64,000 bases of DNA. Source: an uncultured virus (IMG/VR IMGVR_UViG_3300047548_000491). Lineage: Duplodnaviria; Heunggongvirae; Uroviricota; Caudoviricetes. Position 1 is the first letter of the stretch. Each line of letters starts with the position of its first letter. The notes beneath the pieces are model-generated. The model saw only the letters and a list, made by a program, of their open reading frames with translations, was not told the DNA's origin and did no database searches. Positions 14,685 through 25,063 of the stretch are shown here, piece after piece. The stretch is from positions 1-64,000 of the IMG/VR virus record IMGVR_UViG_3300047548_000491; one strand, given 5' to 3'. Position numbers and translations under genes: made by a program.

Positions 14685-15134
14685 ATGTGGATCATTAGCT
14701 TTGCACCCGAATGGGTATTTCATGTTATCTTTGGGTTAGGTGTACTTGGTACCATTGCGGGGTTTGTGCTTGGGTTCATACCTGTAATCAGACAATATAA
14801 GCTACCTATACAGATAATTAGTATTTTGACATTGATTTTAGGTGTATACCTTGAGGGTGCATTAGCAGATTACCGTGAGTGGGAAATGAAAGCTGCTGAA
14901 TTAAAAGTTAAAATTGCTGACATGGAAACCAAATTAGCCCAAAGTGACACAAAAATTGTTGAAAAAGTTGTAGTTAAAACCGAACTTGTTAAACAAAAGG
15001 GCAAGGATGTTGTAAAATATGTAGACAGAGAGATTGTCAAATACGACACTAAATTCTTGCCAGGGGGACAATGCGAGATTCCACAAGAATTTTATAAAGC
15101 GTACAACGATTCACTGAGCTTAGATTTAAAATGA
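14685..15134 (+). CDS. putative inner-membrane spanin (Rz-like)
   Basis: N-terminal transmembrane helices plus coiled coil; overlaps a lipoprotein gene. Confidence 0.55.
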   Translation: MWIISFAPEWVFHVIFGLGVLGTIAGFVLGFIPVIRQYKLPIQIISILTLILGVYLEGALADYREWEMKAAELKVKIADMETKLAQSDTKIVEKVVVKTELVKQKGKDVVKYVDREIVKYDTKFLPGGQCEIPQEFYKAYNDSLSLDLK

Positions 15135-15400
15135 AACCACTATTATTACTAACACTTGTGCTTGCGGGCTGCTCTACTGCGGTTCCAGTAACTATGAACA
15201 ATCCTTACGAGATTCCGCAATCATTAATGCAAGATTGCAGGGATCCTGAAATGCTGAATCCTGAAGCTAAATTCAGCGATAATGTCAAAATTATGATAGA
15301 CAATAACACAAAAGCCACCGAATGCAGGGTGGCTAAACGTGCTCTAAATGAACTTATTCAACAAAGAAAAGAAATCTTTGATAAGTCGATGAAGAAGTAA
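15131..15400 (+). CDS. lipoprotein, putative outer-membrane spanin (Rz1-like)
   Basis: Lipobox LAGC; P..LM..C..P pattern. Confidence 0.6.
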   Translation: MKPLLLLTLVLAGCSTAVPVTMNNPYEIPQSLMQDCRDPEMLNPEAKFSDNVKIMIDNNTKATECRVAKRALNELIQQRKEIFDKSMKK

Positions 15401-17097: not shown

Positions 17098-17796
17098 ATG
17101 GAAAAATTATTAGATATTAATAAAACATTAGACCTAGTAAAGTTGAAATTTTATAATGAGTGGTTATACACTGCTCACATATACGATGAGGGAGATAGTG
17201 GTCTACACTCTTCCCTAACTAAGCAAGTTGTCTCAGCATACATAGATCCCTTAAAGTTACCCAAAGATGCAGTAATTTTAGATATGGGAGCAGGCCCCGG
17301 ATATTTCTTAGATGAAATGAAAGAACGGGGATATACCAAATGTATTGGGGTCGGTCTTAGTACCAAAGACAACGAAATAGCCCGAAGCAAAGGGCATGTT
17401 ATTAAAGAATACGATTTCACTTTCATCCCCCAACAAGAAGGGTGGTATGATGAATCAGTTGATTTTATATTTGCTAGACATTCATTAGAACATAGTCCTT
17501 ATCCTATTTTCACACTAATGGAATATAATCGCTTGTTGAAACAATTTGGCAAAATGTACATCGAGCTTCCGGCACCCGGTGCGCAACGTAAATTTGAATA
17601 TAATCTAAATCATTACAGTGTTTTAGGTGAAGATATGATAGTTGCTTTATTAGAGAGAACTGGTTTTAAGATTGATTTCTTTAATATCATGGAATTTGAT
17701 GCCGAGGTGAACGTTTCAGAAGATAAAAGAGAACAGATCAAAGAAAAGTATTTCTCAATCATGGTCACTAAACAAAAACCATTGGATATCAAATAA
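17098..17796 (+). CDS. class I SAM-dependent methyltransferase
   Basis: ILDMGAGPG; DFIFARHSLEH. Confidence 0.88.
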   Translation: MEKLLDINKTLDLVKLKFYNEWLYTAHIYDEGDSGLHSSLTKQVVSAYIDPLKLPKDAVILDMGAGPGYFLDEMKERGYTKCIGVGLSTKDNEIARSKGHVIKEYDFTFIPQQEGWYDESVDFIFARHSLEHSPYPIFTLMEYNRLLKQFGKMYIELPAPGAQRKFEYNLNHYSVLGEDMIVALLERTGFKIDFFNIMEFDAEVNVSEDKREQIKEKYFSIMVTKQKPLDIK

Positions 17797-17803
17797 ATAC
17801 TTA

Positions 17804-18082
17804 ATGACCTTTGATCCCTGGAAACAGCGAAAAATAATGAATGGTCTGGATAAACTTCAGACCATTCCTTTACCTGCAGAAGTTAATGATACTGTTGAAG
17901 ACATGAAAAGACTTGCTGGAATATCTTCAAATCATGTACCCGAGGGGTCAAATATTAGCTTTACGGGAAATCAAAAGGGTGAATTAATGAAAAAACATAA
18001 TATTCAACCCGGAACACCTGAATGGTTTCAGCTATGGTTTAGTTTACCCTATATGACTGGTGAGAAGCCAGTTGATAAATAA
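17804..18082 (+). CDS. hypothetical late protein
   Basis: TAAATA 4 nt upstream; MKRLAGI, PGTPEWF. Confidence 0.7.
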   Translation: MTFDPWKQRKIMNGLDKLQTIPLPAEVNDTVEDMKRLAGISSNHVPEGSNISFTGNQKGELMKKHNIQPGTPEWFQLWFSLPYMTGEKPVDK

Positions 18083-18086
18083 TAAT

Positions 18087-18362
18087 ATGAGAGCTACTGA
18101 TTTTATTCGCGGATTACTCGATATCATTGACGGTGTCCAAACACAAGAGAATCCTATAGTGGATTATGCTGAAGAAAATTCGGCTGATTGCGATATGGAT
18201 GAAATCGCACAGGATACCTATAGTAATACGCCTGATGAACAGATCACGCCCACTGATACAATCATGAGTATAGGTAATGATGTACATAAACCTAAAAATC
18301 CAGCAGATATAAGAGTATCGACAGTAGCATTGTATCCAGAAACTGCATATAAAGGTAAGTAA
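18087..18362 (+). CDS. hypothetical acidic late protein
   Basis: TAAATA 5 nt upstream; starts MRATDF. Confidence 0.7.
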   Translation: MRATDFIRGLLDIIDGVQTQENPIVDYAEENSADCDMDEIAQDTYSNTPDEQITPTDTIMSIGNDVHKPKNPADIRVSTVALYPETAYKGK

Positions 18363-19222
18363 TGGCTACGATTAATGTTGATGTACAGAGTTTAATTAAC
18401 GCAGCAGAATATGATACCTACTCTGTTGCAGATACCACAACAGTTGGTACGTTTAAAACAACAATTCAAACAGCGACTGGATGTAGCGTTGATTGGTTTG
18501 ATTTGGTATATAACAACACTATTCTAGATGTTTCCAAAACCTTAGCATTTTATTCTATACCCACTGGTGCTAGTATAAGAACTCATAATAAAATTTCTCG
18601 ACTCGCTACGCTGGAACTAAGACAGAAAAGCAAATTAGATTTGGCTGCATTGGATAGAGAGTATTCAGATAATCCTCGAAGCACATACGATATTACAGAG
18701 TTGCCTACTCAATACATTGATGATTCTGTATATGACAATCCAAATCCAGGTGGGTTAACTGAAGGCCGCCCCTGGATTGACACTAAAACTCCGTTCTCAT
18801 TCTATGAGGCAATCAATACTACATCAGCATTGCAAACAACGCAGTATGTAAGTGGTAATAAGATTTATGCATATTCCTCGAGTCTTGATGTCCCTAGTTA
18901 TCAACCGGCTAGGGTAATAGTCAATGATATTGAATTAGCAAACACTACGCTTCGTGGACACACCATGGTAGTCACAAATAGTTTTGGTGATTTAGTAAGT
19001 GTTACAAATTATGATACTTACGGTTCATCATCGGCAGTAACTGCATTAGCATCTGCATTGGGCGGAGTAGCAAGTGAAAATATTGTTATATTAGTAGTAT
19101 ATGATGCTAGTGCATTCAATGCAGCGTGTAGGTCTGCCTTAACTACGGGGTATGGTGATACTAACAGCAACACCTGGACTTCTTCTAGGGTAGATCATAT
19201 CTTTATCGGAATTAAAATATAA
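18362..19222 (+). CDS. ubiquitin-like N-terminal domain plus ILEI/FAM3-like C-terminal domain protein
   Basis: Pattern match by eye to ubiquitin and to the ILEI consensus (RGH.MVV...YDTY...IVILVVYD...R..IFIG). Confidence 0.6.
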   Translation: MATINVDVQSLINAAEYDTYSVADTTTVGTFKTTIQTATGCSVDWFDLVYNNTILDVSKTLAFYSIPTGASIRTHNKISRLATLELRQKSKLDLAALDREYSDNPRSTYDITELPTQYIDDSVYDNPNPGGLTEGRPWIDTKTPFSFYEAINTTSALQTTQYVSGNKIYAYSSSLDVPSYQPARVIVNDIELANTTLRGHTMVVTNSFGDLVSVTNYDTYGSSSAVTALASALGGVASENIVILVVYDASAFNAACRSALTTGYGDTNSNTWTSSRVDHIFIGIKI

Positions 19223-20577
19223 TGGCAGGCGAAGATACCTCACAGTTATACACACCTGAACATCACTCGGGGTCGATGGATAAGCGCCTTAACTCAACTA
19301 ACTACATTCATCCACAAGAGACAAATTTATTGAATCTTGCGAAGGCAATGGAGTATAATGTACAAGGTCAACCTGTATTAAGAACTACATCAGGTGCAAG
19401 TCCGGCATCTAACGATGCGTTCGGTAGATTACGTGTAAGCAATCCATTAACATTATTTGATAGTTTTCATCGTTACAACGATAACGGAAAGATTAACACG
19501 TACACGAATGGTACTGCATCTGCGGTAGCTAATACCAACGCCGGGCTTATTGATTGCACAGTGGGTACTGATTCAGGTGATGCAGTATATAGGGAAAGTA
19601 CAAAAGTATTTTCCTATCAACCGGGAAAAAGTTTACAGGTACTTACAACATTTTGTATGGCACCTGGTAAAACAAATCTAAGACAACGCATCGGGTATTT
19701 TGACACTAGCAATGGAGTGTTCCTAGAACAAGATGGGACAACATTACGTTTTAGAATTCGCTCATCTGTTACTGGCTCAATACAATACGAAAGTGTAGAT
19801 CAGGCTGATTGGAATGTTGATCCGTTAGATGGATCAGGAGAATCGACAATAACATTAGATATCACTAAGGCTCAAATTCTTTTCTTTGATATTGAATGGC
19901 TGGGTGTTGGTAGTGTTCGTTGTGGATTTGTTATTGATGGTCAATTTATATTAGCGCATGTTTTTAACCACGCTAACATCATCACTGGTACATACATGAC
20001 TACTGCTTGTTTACCTGTAAGAATGGAACTAGAAAATACAGGACCAACTGAGAGTTCTAGTTTATATAAGCAAATTTGCACAACTGTGATATCCGAAGGT
20101 GGATATGCACTAACCGGTAGACCACTTAGTATAGGTCATACTCTCAGTGCACCTTATGTTTTAGCAACTCCTAACACAGTATATCCTATTTTCAGTATGA
20201 GATTAAAATCCAATCGGCTAGGTGCTATAGTTTTACCTAAAAACTACAGTGTAGGACTAACCGGTAATCACAACTTTAGATTTATGATTATAATAGGTGG
20301 TACTACTACAGGCGGCACTTGGGTAGATGCGGGATCATCAAGTTCAGTAGAATATAACTTAACAGCAACTAGCATTTCCGGTGGTAGAATAGGTGAGTGG
20401 AAACAAATCATTGGTAGCAATCAATTTGCAGGAGTTGCTGACGTTGCGGACCCATTTCAATATCAACTGGAAAGAAACACGTTTACTGACACAGCTTCAG
20501 AATTAACTATCTGTTTAACTACAAGTGGTAATAATGTTAACGTCTACGGTGCAGTAAATTGGGAAGAGATAACTTAA
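19222..20577 (+). CDS. putative virion structural protein (beta-rich)
   Basis: DAFGRLRVS, YQPGKS, WLGVG; late operon. Confidence 0.6.
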   Translation: MAGEDTSQLYTPEHHSGSMDKRLNSTNYIHPQETNLLNLAKAMEYNVQGQPVLRTTSGASPASNDAFGRLRVSNPLTLFDSFHRYNDNGKINTYTNGTASAVANTNAGLIDCTVGTDSGDAVYRESTKVFSYQPGKSLQVLTTFCMAPGKTNLRQRIGYFDTSNGVFLEQDGTTLRFRIRSSVTGSIQYESVDQADWNVDPLDGSGESTITLDITKAQILFFDIEWLGVGSVRCGFVIDGQFILAHVFNHANIITGTYMTTACLPVRMELENTGPTESSSLYKQICTTVISEGGYALTGRPLSIGHTLSAPYVLATPNTVYPIFSMRLKSNRLGAIVLPKNYSVGLTGNHNFRFMIIIGGTTTGGTWVDAGSSSSVEYNLTATSISGGRIGEWKQIIGSNQFAGVADVADPFQYQLERNTFTDTASELTICLTTSGNNVNVYGAVNWEEIT

Positions 20578-20595
20578 TACGAACTAAATATCGTT

Positions 20596-22143
20596 ATGAG
20601 TGGAACTCCTGCACTAATCAAAACACCCTATCAAAAGACTAAGTTTAAAAGTGATAAGGAACTTGAAGATTTTATAAAATGCTGTGACCCTAACACGGGT
20701 CCAATGTATTTTATGGATAACTTTTTTATGATTCAGCACCCTACTAAAGGTAGTATGAATTATCATCCATGGGACTATCAAAAAAGACTAATCGAGACAT
20801 ATCACAAATATAGATATTCTATTAGTTTAATGCCTCGACAAACTGGTAAGTCAACATCGGCTGCTGGATACTTGTTATGGTATGCAATGTTCGTTCCAGA
20901 CAGTACTATTCTTATAGCAGCACACAAATATACAGGTGCACAAGAAATTATGCAGCGTATTCGTTATGCATACGAAGCCTGCCCCGATCACATCAAAGCA
21001 GGTGTCACTACATACAACAAAGGGTCGTTAGATTTTGAAAACGGGTCTCGCATTGTATCAGCGACTACGACTGAAAATACAGGTCGTGGTATGTCTATTA
21101 CACTTTTATACCTAGACGAATTTGCGTTCGTTCGACCTACAATTGCTTCTGAATTCTGGACATCTATCACACCAACACTGGCAACTGGTGGTAAAGCAAT
21201 TATCACAAGTACGCCCAACTCCGACGAAGATCAATTTGCACTGATTTGGAAGCAAGCTAACAAATGTGAAGACTCGTACGGTAACAAAACAGAATTAGGT
21301 ATAAACGGTTTCAAAGCATATCGTTCATATTGGCAAGAGCACCCTGATAGAGATGATCAATGGGCTGCTCAAATGAAAGCGCAATTAGGCGAAGACAGAT
21401 TCAGACGAGAAATAGGTTGTGAATTTATTATTGCAGACGAAACTCTAATCGCCCCCACAACACTATTAGATTTAGAAGGTATAGAACCTATACATCGTCA
21501 AGGTCAAATCAGGTGGTATAAAAAGCCCGAAAAAGGAAATATATATGTTGTTGCACTAGACCCCGCTGTAGGTACAGGCGGAGATAATGCAGCTATTCAA
21601 GTGTATGAAGCTAACACCACAACACAAGTGGGTGAATGGAAGCACAATAAAACCGACATACCTTCACAAATACGATTGATTGCTGACATAAACAAATACA
21701 TTGTAGAATGTACTAATGAGCCTGATAACATATATTATTCTGTAGAAGTCAACGGTGTCGGTGAGGCCGCGCTCGTTAGCTTAAATGAATTCGGGTATCA
21801 CAATATTCCTGGTATATTTTTAAGTGAACCTGGAAGGAAGAAACGCGGATTTAATACTACTAACAAGAGTAAACTTACAGCATGTGCTAAGTTCAAAACT
21901 TTAGTAGAAAGCAGAAAGATGACCATAAACAGCAGAAGTTTAGTGTCAGAATTGAAAAACTTCATAGCTATGGGCGGTAGCTATCAAGCTAAAATCGGAG
22001 AATCAGATGATTTAGTTACTTCTACTTTACTAGTTGTTAGGATATTTCAGCAGTTAAGTGATTTTAACTACGCTTTAGATCAACATATACGTGACCATGA
22101 CGAGATAATAGAACCCTTGCCGTTCTTCGCAGTTCTCGGGTAA
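20596..22143 (+). CDS. terL: terminase large subunit (T4 gp17-like)
   Basis: PRQTGKS, YLDEFAF, STPN, ALDPAVG, DDLV. Confidence 0.95.
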   Translation: MSGTPALIKTPYQKTKFKSDKELEDFIKCCDPNTGPMYFMDNFFMIQHPTKGSMNYHPWDYQKRLIETYHKYRYSISLMPRQTGKSTSAAGYLLWYAMFVPDSTILIAAHKYTGAQEIMQRIRYAYEACPDHIKAGVTTYNKGSLDFENGSRIVSATTTENTGRGMSITLLYLDEFAFVRPTIASEFWTSITPTLATGGKAIITSTPNSDEDQFALIWKQANKCEDSYGNKTELGINGFKAYRSYWQEHPDRDDQWAAQMKAQLGEDRFRREIGCEFIIADETLIAPTTLLDLEGIEPIHRQGQIRWYKKPEKGNIYVVALDPAVGTGGDNAAIQVYEANTTTQVGEWKHNKTDIPSQIRLIADINKYIVECTNEPDNIYYSVEVNGVGEAALVSLNEFGYHNIPGIFLSEPGRKKRGFNTTNKSKLTACAKFKTLVESRKMTINSRSLVSELKNFIAMGGSYQAKIGESDDLVTSTLLVVRIFQQLSDFNYALDQHIRDHDEIIEPLPFFAVLG

Positions 22144-22172: not shown

Positions 22173-23615
22173 ATGTCTATACGAAAAGAAAACCTCAACC
22201 GAGAATTATATGGATTTTTAAAGTCTCACGGATACAAACCACATGGATTTTTAAGCTCCGGTGAAAGTTCCGGAGTTCCTGAAAAAGCCGACTTTTTCCA
22301 ATTTGACTTTGTTTATGATGGTAAAACATACGGTAAAATTTCAGTTTCCATTGACGGTTCTGGAAACATGGTTGTTTATATAGGCAACGATGTCGAAGAC
22401 GCTCCTAAAGCAGACTCACATGATAGTATAGGACTTGATTCACTAAGAAGATACTTGTCAAAGTTTAGATATTCTAAGGCTTTAAAATCTTTTACATACG
22501 CCGACAATGATGATTTGGAACCTGACATGAAGAAAAGAGAACATGATAAACAAGAGAGTTTAGTAGAAGGCTATTATCCAGTTAACAAGAAAACTAGCTA
22601 CAGCGACAACGTTCCTGCTACTAAGATTATCATTCAACATTCACGGGTAATGGAAGAAGGTGATCAACGCTATCGTGCTGTAGAAAAGATTTTTGTAGAG
22701 AATATGCAAGGTGAGAGATTCCTTTTACCTACAACTAAGCCAGGAATAGCTCGTGTATATGCAAGACATATCAGTGAAGGTGGTACACCGTATGATGAAA
22801 GAGGTCTACACATAACCAGTTTATGTGAAGAATATTCAAAAATGGCTGGTTTTGTAAGAGCAACAAAGAACAAGCAGTTCAATGAATCTGTGCAACCATT
22901 AGTGCTTGAAGGTATTAACCATTACAACCATTTGCGTGAAACTCTACACAAAATGTCAGGCAAAAGAGGTTACACAGAATACTTCAACAACTATAAACCT
23001 GCATTGTTGGAAGACGAGAACACAGAAGATTTAACTGAGATGTTCAAGGAATCAACTTTAGACCCAAGAATAGCAAATGTCATACAAGTATTAGCTAAAC
23101 TAAAAAAGAATGCTCCAATGCACAAACCATTGAAGCAAGTTAATGAATTAGAAAATTGGGCAGACCAAGTTATCGAAGGTGAGCCAGGCGACCTAGAAAC
23201 AGAATTAGAAAAACAAGAATACGAACAGGATCGTGCTAGAGATGAGTATGCCGAAAAATCCATGAACGATAAAGACGAAAATGTTGATGAAGCTGTTGAA
23301 AAAATTGCTGGTAGATATGATCCAGTTGAGTTTGATGAAAAGATAAAAAGATTAAAGGCTTTGGCAAAAAAGAATCCAGTTGACACTGCTAAACTTGCAC
23401 AATTACTTCGCCAAGCAACTGAAAAAGAAAAAAACAAAGAAGTACAAGAAGCTGGTCCTGCGGGTAAACCGGGTGACTACTTCGATGACGAAACAGTTAG
23501 TACAGGCCCTATTTTAGGTCATGAGCCACAGACGCAGCATGGATTACGTGGCAAACTAGTAGGTGAATCAGAAGATTTATTGAGAATCAAACAACTTTCA
23601 GGATTACAAAAATGA
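22173..23615 (+). CDS. hypothetical late protein
   Basis: 480-aa ORF after TAAATA; acidic C-terminus ending LRIKQLSGL. Confidence 0.75.
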   Translation: MSIRKENLNRELYGFLKSHGYKPHGFLSSGESSGVPEKADFFQFDFVYDGKTYGKISVSIDGSGNMVVYIGNDVEDAPKADSHDSIGLDSLRRYLSKFRYSKALKSFTYADNDDLEPDMKKREHDKQESLVEGYYPVNKKTSYSDNVPATKIIIQHSRVMEEGDQRYRAVEKIFVENMQGERFLLPTTKPGIARVYARHISEGGTPYDERGLHITSLCEEYSKMAGFVRATKNKQFNESVQPLVLEGINHYNHLRETLHKMSGKRGYTEYFNNYKPALLEDENTEDLTEMFKESTLDPRIANVIQVLAKLKKNAPMHKPLKQVNELENWADQVIEGEPGDLETELEKQEYEQDRARDEYAEKSMNDKDENVDEAVEKIAGRYDPVEFDEKIKRLKALAKKNPVDTAKLAQLLRQATEKEKNKEVQEAGPAGKPGDYFDDETVSTGPILGHEPQTQHGLRGKLVGESEDLLRIKQLSGLQK

Positions 23616-25063
23616 AAGAATTACTTGAACTAGAACAATGGGCTGAGAATATTGTAGCCAATGAGGCTGTACAAGATAGACCTTTGGCTAGAAGTCAAGA
23701 TATTCAATATCAAGCAAGTAGAGAATACCCAGATCGTAGTCCTGAACAAGCTCTGCAATTGTATGTTGCTAATAAACTTGCAGCAACAGAAAAAATGGAT
23801 TTAGATCAGAACAGACTAATTAACTCCCAAAAACGTGAAAATGAAAAATTACGTAGAAGCCTACAAGATTTAAGCCAAGACCTCAATAATCATGAGAAAC
23901 AAGCTACCGACACCGGCGCAGAAATTGAACGCTTAAAGGCATTAAGTGCTAAATTAAAGCCTGCGGGAGAAATTCAGAAACAAGCTGCTAAAGCTAGTGC
24001 AGACAAAGTAGAAGCAATGTTAGCTGACTTAGAAAAAGTTAAAGTTGTTCCTGGTATGGATGAGAAGAAATACAAAGAACTTTCTGATAAAGTTGATAAA
24101 ATAAAAAACAATGCCGGAAACGAAGAAATAGCCAAAGTACAAAAAGCATTACAGCAAATGTCGCAACAACAAAGTATAGACAACAATTTGTTTGACAACG
24201 TAATGCAACAGCTAACTAATACACAAGAACAGTTAGATGCTAAAGAAGCAAGGTTCAAAAAATACATAGAGAAAAAATCCAGTGAGATTACTTCTACTAC
24301 ACAAAGTCATGGCGAAGAATTAAAAAAATATGCTGACATTGTAAACAAATACAAAGATGATGTAGAATCTTTTAAAAATTACATGGACACTACTCGCAAA
24401 GAAGTAGCAAATACTAAAGCAGAAGTAGACCAACTTAAGAAAGATGCGGAGAATAAGATGCAAGAATTAGAATTCTTGTCTCCGACATTAAAGAAATTTG
24501 CAATGCAGAAGCCAGGTGAGGCGCCAACGCAGTCTTCTGATTTCAGCAGTGATAGAGCCTTCAAACAAGCAATGTCAGCAGCATCACCTGCTGCCGAACC
24601 AGCAACTAAATTGGCTATACAGAGTAAAAAAGATTTGCAAAATTTAGAAAAAGACTCAGAGATCCAGAGGAGCTATGCTATGGCTGCAACACCGACTGAT
24701 AAGTTTGACTTGGATAAGTTAGACGAAAACCTTAAAAACAACAGTAACCCTGAATTTGTTGAATGGGCTAACAAAAACATTCCAGTAGCATTAAGAATGT
24801 TTTTCAATCGTTATCCTGAATTAGAATCAATTTACGCTTTGGAACAAGTGCAAGCAGTAATGAGTGAGTATTTCCCGTATCTATATCAATACGATGAGAT
24901 TGATATGGAGACTATGAATAAGTTCTTAGACTTTATTAAAAATAAGATCAAGGCTCAACCAATTCAACCTATGCAAAAGAGTTTGTTCGATAATTTAGCA
25001 GAAGCATATGAAACATCTTTGGATAAATTGATTGGGTTAGATTACATAAAAACCCATAGATAA
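23612..25063 (+). CDS. coiled-coil protein
   Basis: Long K/E/Q-rich heptad region. Confidence 0.75.
   Translation: MKELLELEQWAENIVANEAVQDRPLARSQDIQYQASREYPDRSPEQALQLYVANKLAATEKMDLDQNRLINSQKRENEKLRRSLQDLSQDLNNHEKQATDTGAEIERLKALSAKLKPAGEIQKQAAKASADKVEAMLADLEKVKVVPGMDEKKYKELSDKVDKIKNNAGNEEIAKVQKALQQMSQQQSIDNNLFDNVMQQLTNTQEQLDAKEARFKKYIEKKSSEITSTTQSHGEELKKYADIVNKYKDDVESFKNYMDTTRKEVANTKAEVDQLKKDAENKMQELEFLSPTLKKFAMQKPGEAPTQSSDFSSDRAFKQAMSAASPAAEPATKLAIQSKKDLQNLEKDSEIQRSYAMAATPTDKFDLDKLDENLKNNSNPEFVEWANKNIPVALRMFFNRYPELESIYALEQVQAVMSEYFPYLYQYDEIDMETMNKFLDFIKNKIKAQPIQPMQKSLFDNLAEAYETSLDKLIGLDYIKTHR

Follow-up and report, generated by a model that had tools for sequence, protein, structure and literature searches.

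A ubiquitin-family domain joined to a conserved module and an interchangeable head in a protein of uncultured large phages

What might a ubiquitin-like domain do in a phage protein that also carries an ILEI/FAM3-like domain? The gene that raises this question (18362..19222, + strand, 286 aa) lies in a 64,000-nt window, the whole stretch of DNA analysed here, which belongs to a 99,913-base record of an uncultured virus that is 74% complete. A sequence-only reading had proposed a eukaryote-like ubiquitin domain fused to an ILEI domain in a late operon, forming a virion protein that may act as a decoy for antiphage conjugation systems or bind glycans. Both domains are present, but the two-part architecture overlooked a conserved middle module. 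The protein comprises a ubiquitin-family (PF00240) beta-grasp domain (Ubl; aa 1-75, 18362..18586, + strand), which is integral, lacks a di-Gly and is optional in the family; a conserved, unclassified module (aa 76-139, 18587..18778, + strand); and an ILEI/FAM3/POMGnT1-stem-fold domain with R198, D248 and R276, assigned by Pfam and structure (18794..19219, + strand). We collected 1358 homologues at E ≤ 1e-3 (2979 candidates, 157-501 aa). In all three domains pN was far below pS in 5/5 pairs, with pS near saturation, as for purifying selection. The AF2 model of the whole protein had a mean pLDDT of 84.7, with aa 107-142, the second half of the module, mostly below 50.

The N-terminal domain is a genuine ubiquitin-family domain. 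The gap-free alignment to ubiquitin described in the sequence-only reading was reproduced with the identities it had listed (query 19-71, ubiquitin 14-66); its phmmer score was weak (~1 bit per domain). Pfam, which had been suggested as a check on both halves, placed each above its cut-off. For PF00240, the match in the whole protein covered aa 19-72 (25.8 bits with the cut-off at 25.4; E 9e-6) and rose to 29.3 bits for aa 1-75 alone. The same profile matched 72/120 homologues at E ≤ 0.01 and, at E ≤ 0.1, 22 of 26 members compared with 3/26 for YukD. The AF2 model of the Ubl is a beta-grasp, the fold on which the earlier claim depended, and it superimposes on ubiquitin and ISG15 with Z 14.4 and an rmsd of 1.1-1.3 Å over 74-76 residues; in Foldseek the TM to target was ~0.9. 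Across ubiquitin, the ISG15 C-domain, the Dsk2 UBL and OASL, the same fold was matched at Z 13.5-14.4 and rmsd 1.0-1.5 Å. Among 163 unique Ubl-bearing proteins, the ubiquitin core residues L8, T22, K27, I30, T55, L56 and I61 are retained. K27, which is buried, is the only ubiquitin lysine kept, the other six of the seven being lost, and the equivalents of K48, K63 and residues 41-44 are variable. Conserved residues specific to the family are Q9, S10, N13, A15, Y17, W45 and R73, and the beta1-beta2 loop, two residues longer than that of ubiquitin, has its own QSxxNxAxY motif. The phage Ubl thus differs from ubiquitin and from integral UBLs in its missing di-Gly, longer beta1-beta2 loop, W45 and rigid fusion to a phage module. 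PF00240-type domains are seldom seen in bacteriophages; here an apparently non-conjugated version is kept in hundreds of phage proteins.

The absence of a di-Gly after the domain, also remarked on in the sequence-only reading, extends to the family. GG is missing from the query, was found at residues 69-90 in just 1/163 unique relatives, and at residues 67-90 in 0/120 short relatives among the matches listed. The exceptional protein (L022, 3263-4147) is the most divergent Ubl member. Its glycines, three in number, end a six-residue insertion that sits just past the Ubl/module junction, inside the first turn of the module, and this module is of the Ubl-free type, with Lys at position 97; the glycines are possibly a relic di-Gly or the mark of an independent fusion. 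We saw no stand-alone phage Ubl among the 120 short matches listed of 338: the module is present in 118/120, and the remaining two (81 and 86 aa) end within its first residues and look truncated. Profiles for ThiF, Prok-JAB and JAB each matched 0/5 genomes with their controls working, the window's own record being 74% complete, and UQ_con and OTU likewise matched 0/5 genomes, with controls that were silent too. We take the Ubl to be incapable of attachment and neither conjugated nor cleaved; cleavage like that of lambda gpI by gpK was rejected because there is neither a Gly nor a JAB.

The middle module is more conserved than the Ubl, with a mean column conservation of 0.80 for aa 76-141 compared with 0.71. 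Its 64 residues include a helix (84-101) with invariant Q88, K91, L92 and R99, an LP at 114-115, a hairpin and a GRPW end, and relatives encode it as a stand-alone protein of 67-76 aa. No known family was found for it in Pfam or PHROG. Its sequence profile gave a best E of 0.62 against the PDB, fold searches were filled by Ubl matches, and ESM Atlas returned no usable match for the module or for aa 1-140. A profile search detected the module in 2723 of 8000 scored candidates (126-2000 aa), which makes it an undescribed and very common family of more than 2,700 clusters. It was single copy in 5/5 large records, all chosen for carrying it. Among records picked by capsid similarity it occurred in 2/14, most of the 14 being fragments, and core-gene status is therefore unsupported; the one record at least 90% complete has the module (1/1), and an 86%-complete record is without it. 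By tblastn, neither the module nor the whole protein matched any of 50,697 phage records, and the module profile found 0/3 of the cultured relatives PA5oct, Phosso and BF. In GTDB genomes, 17 pattern matches yielded one module locus (L245), on an 18.7 kb contig of a Crocinitomicaceae MAG; this is probably mis-binned phage DNA and a possible lead to the host. When the module (aa 74-139) was modelled in complex with the major capsid protein as a dimer of chains, the score was 0.00, which counts neither way. One relative (P0368) has ~200 residues inserted within the module, directly before the GRPW end, an arrangement suggesting that GRPW folds back against the rest of the module. The insert, which had no Pfam match at E ≤ 0.001, looks SPRY-like.

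Ubl and module appear to be built as one piece. With a more diverse alignment, AF2 modelled aa 1-139 as a single rigid unit (pLDDT 95.4, pTM 0.87). Mean-field covariation over 278 sequences (Neff 55) gave a weak signal with some implausible pairs mixed in, recovering plausible sheet contacts and the module-internal pairs K89-Q117, D93-Y109 and T116-D125. The strongest pairs between the two domains mostly join loop 12-16 to module positions 84, 90, 97, 108 and 109 (A15-T108, E16-L84, A14-L84, A14-S90 and I12-L97). Judging by covariation, the conserved face of the Ubl appears to pack on the protein's own module. Of 151 modules that carry a Ubl, 93% have Leu at position 97, where T, A or I stands in the 161 without one, an association that could arise through linkage alone. 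Mutual information on the module by itself was mostly lineage signal.

The C-terminal part has the ILEI/PANDER pattern assigned to it from the sequence. Pfam ILEI (PF15711) matched aa 198-285 (34.3 bits against a cut-off of 27, E 3e-8) and was found at E ≤ 0.01 in 117/120 homologues. By structure, aa 164-286 matched the POMGnT1 stem (5ggf/5ggj; Z 13.8, rmsd 1.8 Å, 113 residues aligned) and FAM3B (2yoq; Z 13.6), with beta-strands from aa 147 preceding the matched region. This match came from the structural search alone; searching the PDB by sequence with the ILEI part gave nothing relevant, and tblastn of the same part against the 50,697 phage records gave six weak matches (E 0.1-7). Foldseek also matched phage fibre and receptor-binding proteins. 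POMGnT1 binds GlcNAc via R129, D179 and R207, and FAM3A and FAM3C bind sugars, according to the available text of PMC9802357. R198, D248 and R276 of the phage protein are spaced as these three residues are, with an offset of 69, as also seen where the structural alignment ends, the equivalence resting on range offsets rather than residue-level superposition. The triad is intact in 234/237 relatives. By analogy with this fold and triad, the head is likely to recognise GlcNAc-type sugars on the surface of the host or of the particle. T4 gp35 carries an ILEI-like domain as well, and the accessible part of the source does not state sugar binding there (10.64898/2026.03.06.709160). Compared with POMGnT1, FAM3 (ILEI, PANDER) and the gp35 kneecap, the ILEI domain here serves as the head in a small protein of modular build and is swappable with PA14 and LamG domains.

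This exchange is seen across 127 unique proteins (loci L001-L239), found by sequence patterns that derive either from the module or from the Ubl of the present protein; the proportions are biased by these patterns, which would miss more distant forms. Without a Ubl there were 15 proteins with the module alone, 26 with module and ILEI, and 17 with module and another head; with a Ubl, 36 had the module only, 17 module and ILEI, and 12 module and another head. The remainder were one Ubl truncated where its contig stops and three proteins with ILEI but no module. PA14/GLEYA or LamG accounted for 14/20 picked proteins with other heads. The module is therefore the usual companion of the Ubl, in 65/66 Ubl-bearing proteins from viral loci, and the commonest Ubl form (36/66 unique proteins) lacks ILEI; the functional unit is thus not the pair of Ubl and ILEI. 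Since the 15 module-only and 36 Ubl-module proteins are headless, some members must have a role other than adhesion. In one locus (L038:7413-8627), a different N-terminal extension of ~190 aa, which itself begins like the N-terminus of a module, replaces the Ubl ahead of the module. Two relatives in UniProt, from uncultured Caudovirales, are named just 'Interleukin-like EMT inducer', and among mostly open-access texts, main text only, we found no paper describing the module or its Ubl cap. The component folds are known already, and the likely role, accessory adhesion, is an ordinary one.

The Ubl is also patchy among close relatives. On a tree of module plus ILEI (29/112 Ubl-bearing and 29/118 Ubl-free proteins, thinned at 80% likeness), its presence changes 13 times, at least four of these changes being forced by starred branches. 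The Ubl-bearing protein of L015 and the Ubl-free protein of L042 are sisters with support 99, in loci that share an identical capsid protein sequence and have flanking DNA 79-89% identical. From the tree and this pair, we conclude that the Ubl is dispensable and shuffled. On a tree of the Ubl itself (a quick search over 80 columns), 32 phage domains and one truncated phage domain (L107) split from 59 other Ubl domains with an SH-aLRT of 96 on the parting branch, which is compatible with a single acquisition by the phage lineage. No eukaryotic sister group was resolved on the 80 columns, and the donor is left unnamed; a bacterial donor is still conceivable because BilA/BubA-type Ubls are absent from the tree. 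The best matches of the Ubl profile outside the family are poly-ubiquitin-like proteins, which we read as eukaryotic, making the Ubl eukaryote-like by profile.

The genome setting points to large T4-like phages. The identical gene occurs in a 260-kb record, near-complete relatives are ~355 kb, and the best matches among sequencing runs were from a freshwater metagenome, which may be the source; no RNA runs were listed among the runs matching the locus. The window encodes a T4-type terminase large subunit (TerL; 20596..22143, + strand) that is 50% identical to those of PA5oct and Paride, which are the closest cultured phages when judged by terminase. Its major capsid protein, of the gp23-like type, is 65-69% identical to those of cultured jumbo phages. 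The late operon proposed from the sequence agrees with 1-nt gene overlaps and a promoter-like hexamer at the locus. The 18362..19222 gene has a neighbour on each side that overlaps it by 1 nt: the upstream gene (18087..18362, + strand; 91 aa, family 2, a usual neighbour) shares 1 nt with its start codon, and the downstream gene (19222..20577, + strand; phrog_1645, 'virion structural protein') shares 1 nt with its stop. A TAAATA hexamer, which we take to resemble the T4 late promoter, stands 11 nt ahead of that upstream gene (18076..18081, + strand). It precedes 6/15 inspected starts, that of TerL included, and is absent in front of the genes for DHFR, thymidylate synthase, epimerase and SSB. 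Neither late promoters nor decoration proteins are treated in the available text of PMC7318152. In PA5oct, the neighbours of TerL on either side encode virion proteins detected by MS.

In Ubl-bearing loci the downstream family is adjacent in 44/53 and the small family 2/29 gene in 42/48, compared with just 18/50 and 22/49 in loci without a Ubl. At the N-terminus of the virion protein encoded downstream, ~64 aa (19222-19413) are conserved and clade-specific, of an HPxExNLLNLHKAMEY type, and sit on bodies of 430-860 aa; cyanophage virion homologues match only from residue 51-65. This N-terminal stretch would be a second anchor-like module.

These results fit best, and in our view with reasonable likelihood, a late accessory virion surface protein in which the module serves as anchor, the head binds glycans and the Ubl forms an optional structural cap. 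We favour this reading because the module takes swappable heads in related phages. The carriers would be uncultured ~355-kb T4-like freshwater jumbo phages that express the protein late. The core module, for which 'anchor' is a working name, would dock on a conserved part of the virion, probably the capsid or sheath, and display an interchangeable glycan-binding head, here of the ILEI/POMGnT1-stem type. The Ubl, acquired once by the lineage, would cap the module rigidly through its beta1-beta2 loop and may act structurally as a stabiliser, spacer or shield. T4 Hoc and Soc are non-essential late proteins that combine a virion-binding part with variable outer adhesion domains. By analogy, they are a probable working likeness of the Ubl-module-head protein; there is no sequence match to capsid decoration and display families, with which the late virion-gene context and the variable adhesion heads are shared. 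The glycan-binding virion protein of the sequence-only reading is thus supported indirectly, by the triad, the exchange with PA14 and LamG and the late unit, while its decoy part fared poorly.

As a decoy, the Ubl would face outward on the virion, or act in the cell, to inhibit the E1, E2 or JAB enzymes of Bil, Bub or type II CBASS systems, with the module as scaffold. Counter-defence genes are often patchy across close relatives, as the Ubl is, its fold is truly that of the ubiquitin family, and the form without a sugar head is common. A ubiquitin-like fold in a phage-bacterium setting is also shared with BilA and BubA, and Bil targets a virion protein during assembly, as far as the available description goes. 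We nevertheless consider the decoy very unlikely. BilA requires a C-terminal Gly that enters the E1 site and works with an E1, an E2 and a deubiquitinase (accessible part of 10.1101/2023.09.04.556158), whereas the phage Ubl runs into the module with no such Gly and neither ThiF nor JAB was found in the five genomes searched for each; by covariation the conserved Ubl residues cluster toward the module, with the K48, K63 and 41-44 equivalents free to vary; and PADLOC matched just 1/26 members at an unconvincing E of 0.022. A related idea is that the lineage captured a eukaryote-type ubiquitin once and shows it on the particle via the module, as cargo engaging either an enzyme of bacterial Ubl-based defence or, in eukaryotic grazers, a ubiquitin receptor. 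Were this the case, which seems to us quite unlikely, the headless Ubl-module proteins (36/66) would be pure ubiquitin-display proteins. It is also very doubtful that the protein is not part of the virion at all and is released on lysis or acts, via its lectin head and Ubl, on eukaryotic cells such as grazers or at the surface of the host: the eukaryote-like profile of the Ubl would suit such a role, but the late gene block does not, nor does the loss of the functional lysines and tail of ubiquitin, with K27 alone kept.

The module might instead be an assembly or internal-head factor, or a partner of the flanking products, with the Ubl as an N-terminal folding or assembly tag. A precedent exists in lambda and T1 gpI (TAPI), likewise a late protein of phages in which a Ubl is fused ahead of a small C-terminal domain; the lambda Ubl is removed by gpK, according to the available text of PMC12908700. 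The 1-nt gene overlaps and the adjacency of the flanking families in most Ubl-bearing loci agree with such a partnership. In the accessible part of PMC1779556, however, the TAPI Ubl is described as ThiS/MoaD-related, with a conserved Gly, a Gly-rich linker and an adjoining JAB protease. None of these was found here: PF06805 (TAPI) is not among the matches of 26 members, the neighbours at the locus are not JAB genes, and the five records have neither JAB nor Prok-JAB. The neighbours, moreover, are adjacent in a minority of loci without a Ubl, and the heads have lectin-type folds, which are typical of outer surfaces. We therefore regard an assembly factor as unlikely, and return to the accessory surface protein as the preferred reading. 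Should the module prove to anchor cargo to the virion, it would serve as a marker for the adhesion repertoire of many uncultured freshwater phages, a large group, and would offer a small display tag.

We also noted features of the late block outside the three overlapping genes. By eye, a short (K/Q)RLAG(I/L)-like motif recurs in several small or coiled-coil late proteins (17804-18082, 22173-23615 and 23612-25063 in the window, and L244:2691-3800) and at the C-terminal end of the product encoded ahead of the capsid protein, a sharing that suggests head-targeting. The late block includes a class I SAM methyltransferase (17098-17796; Methyltransf_23, E 3e-16), which adjoins the Ubl-gene locus in close relatives too. 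Further upstream, an overlapping i-spanin/o-spanin pair of the Rz/Rz1-like type is encoded at 14685-15400.
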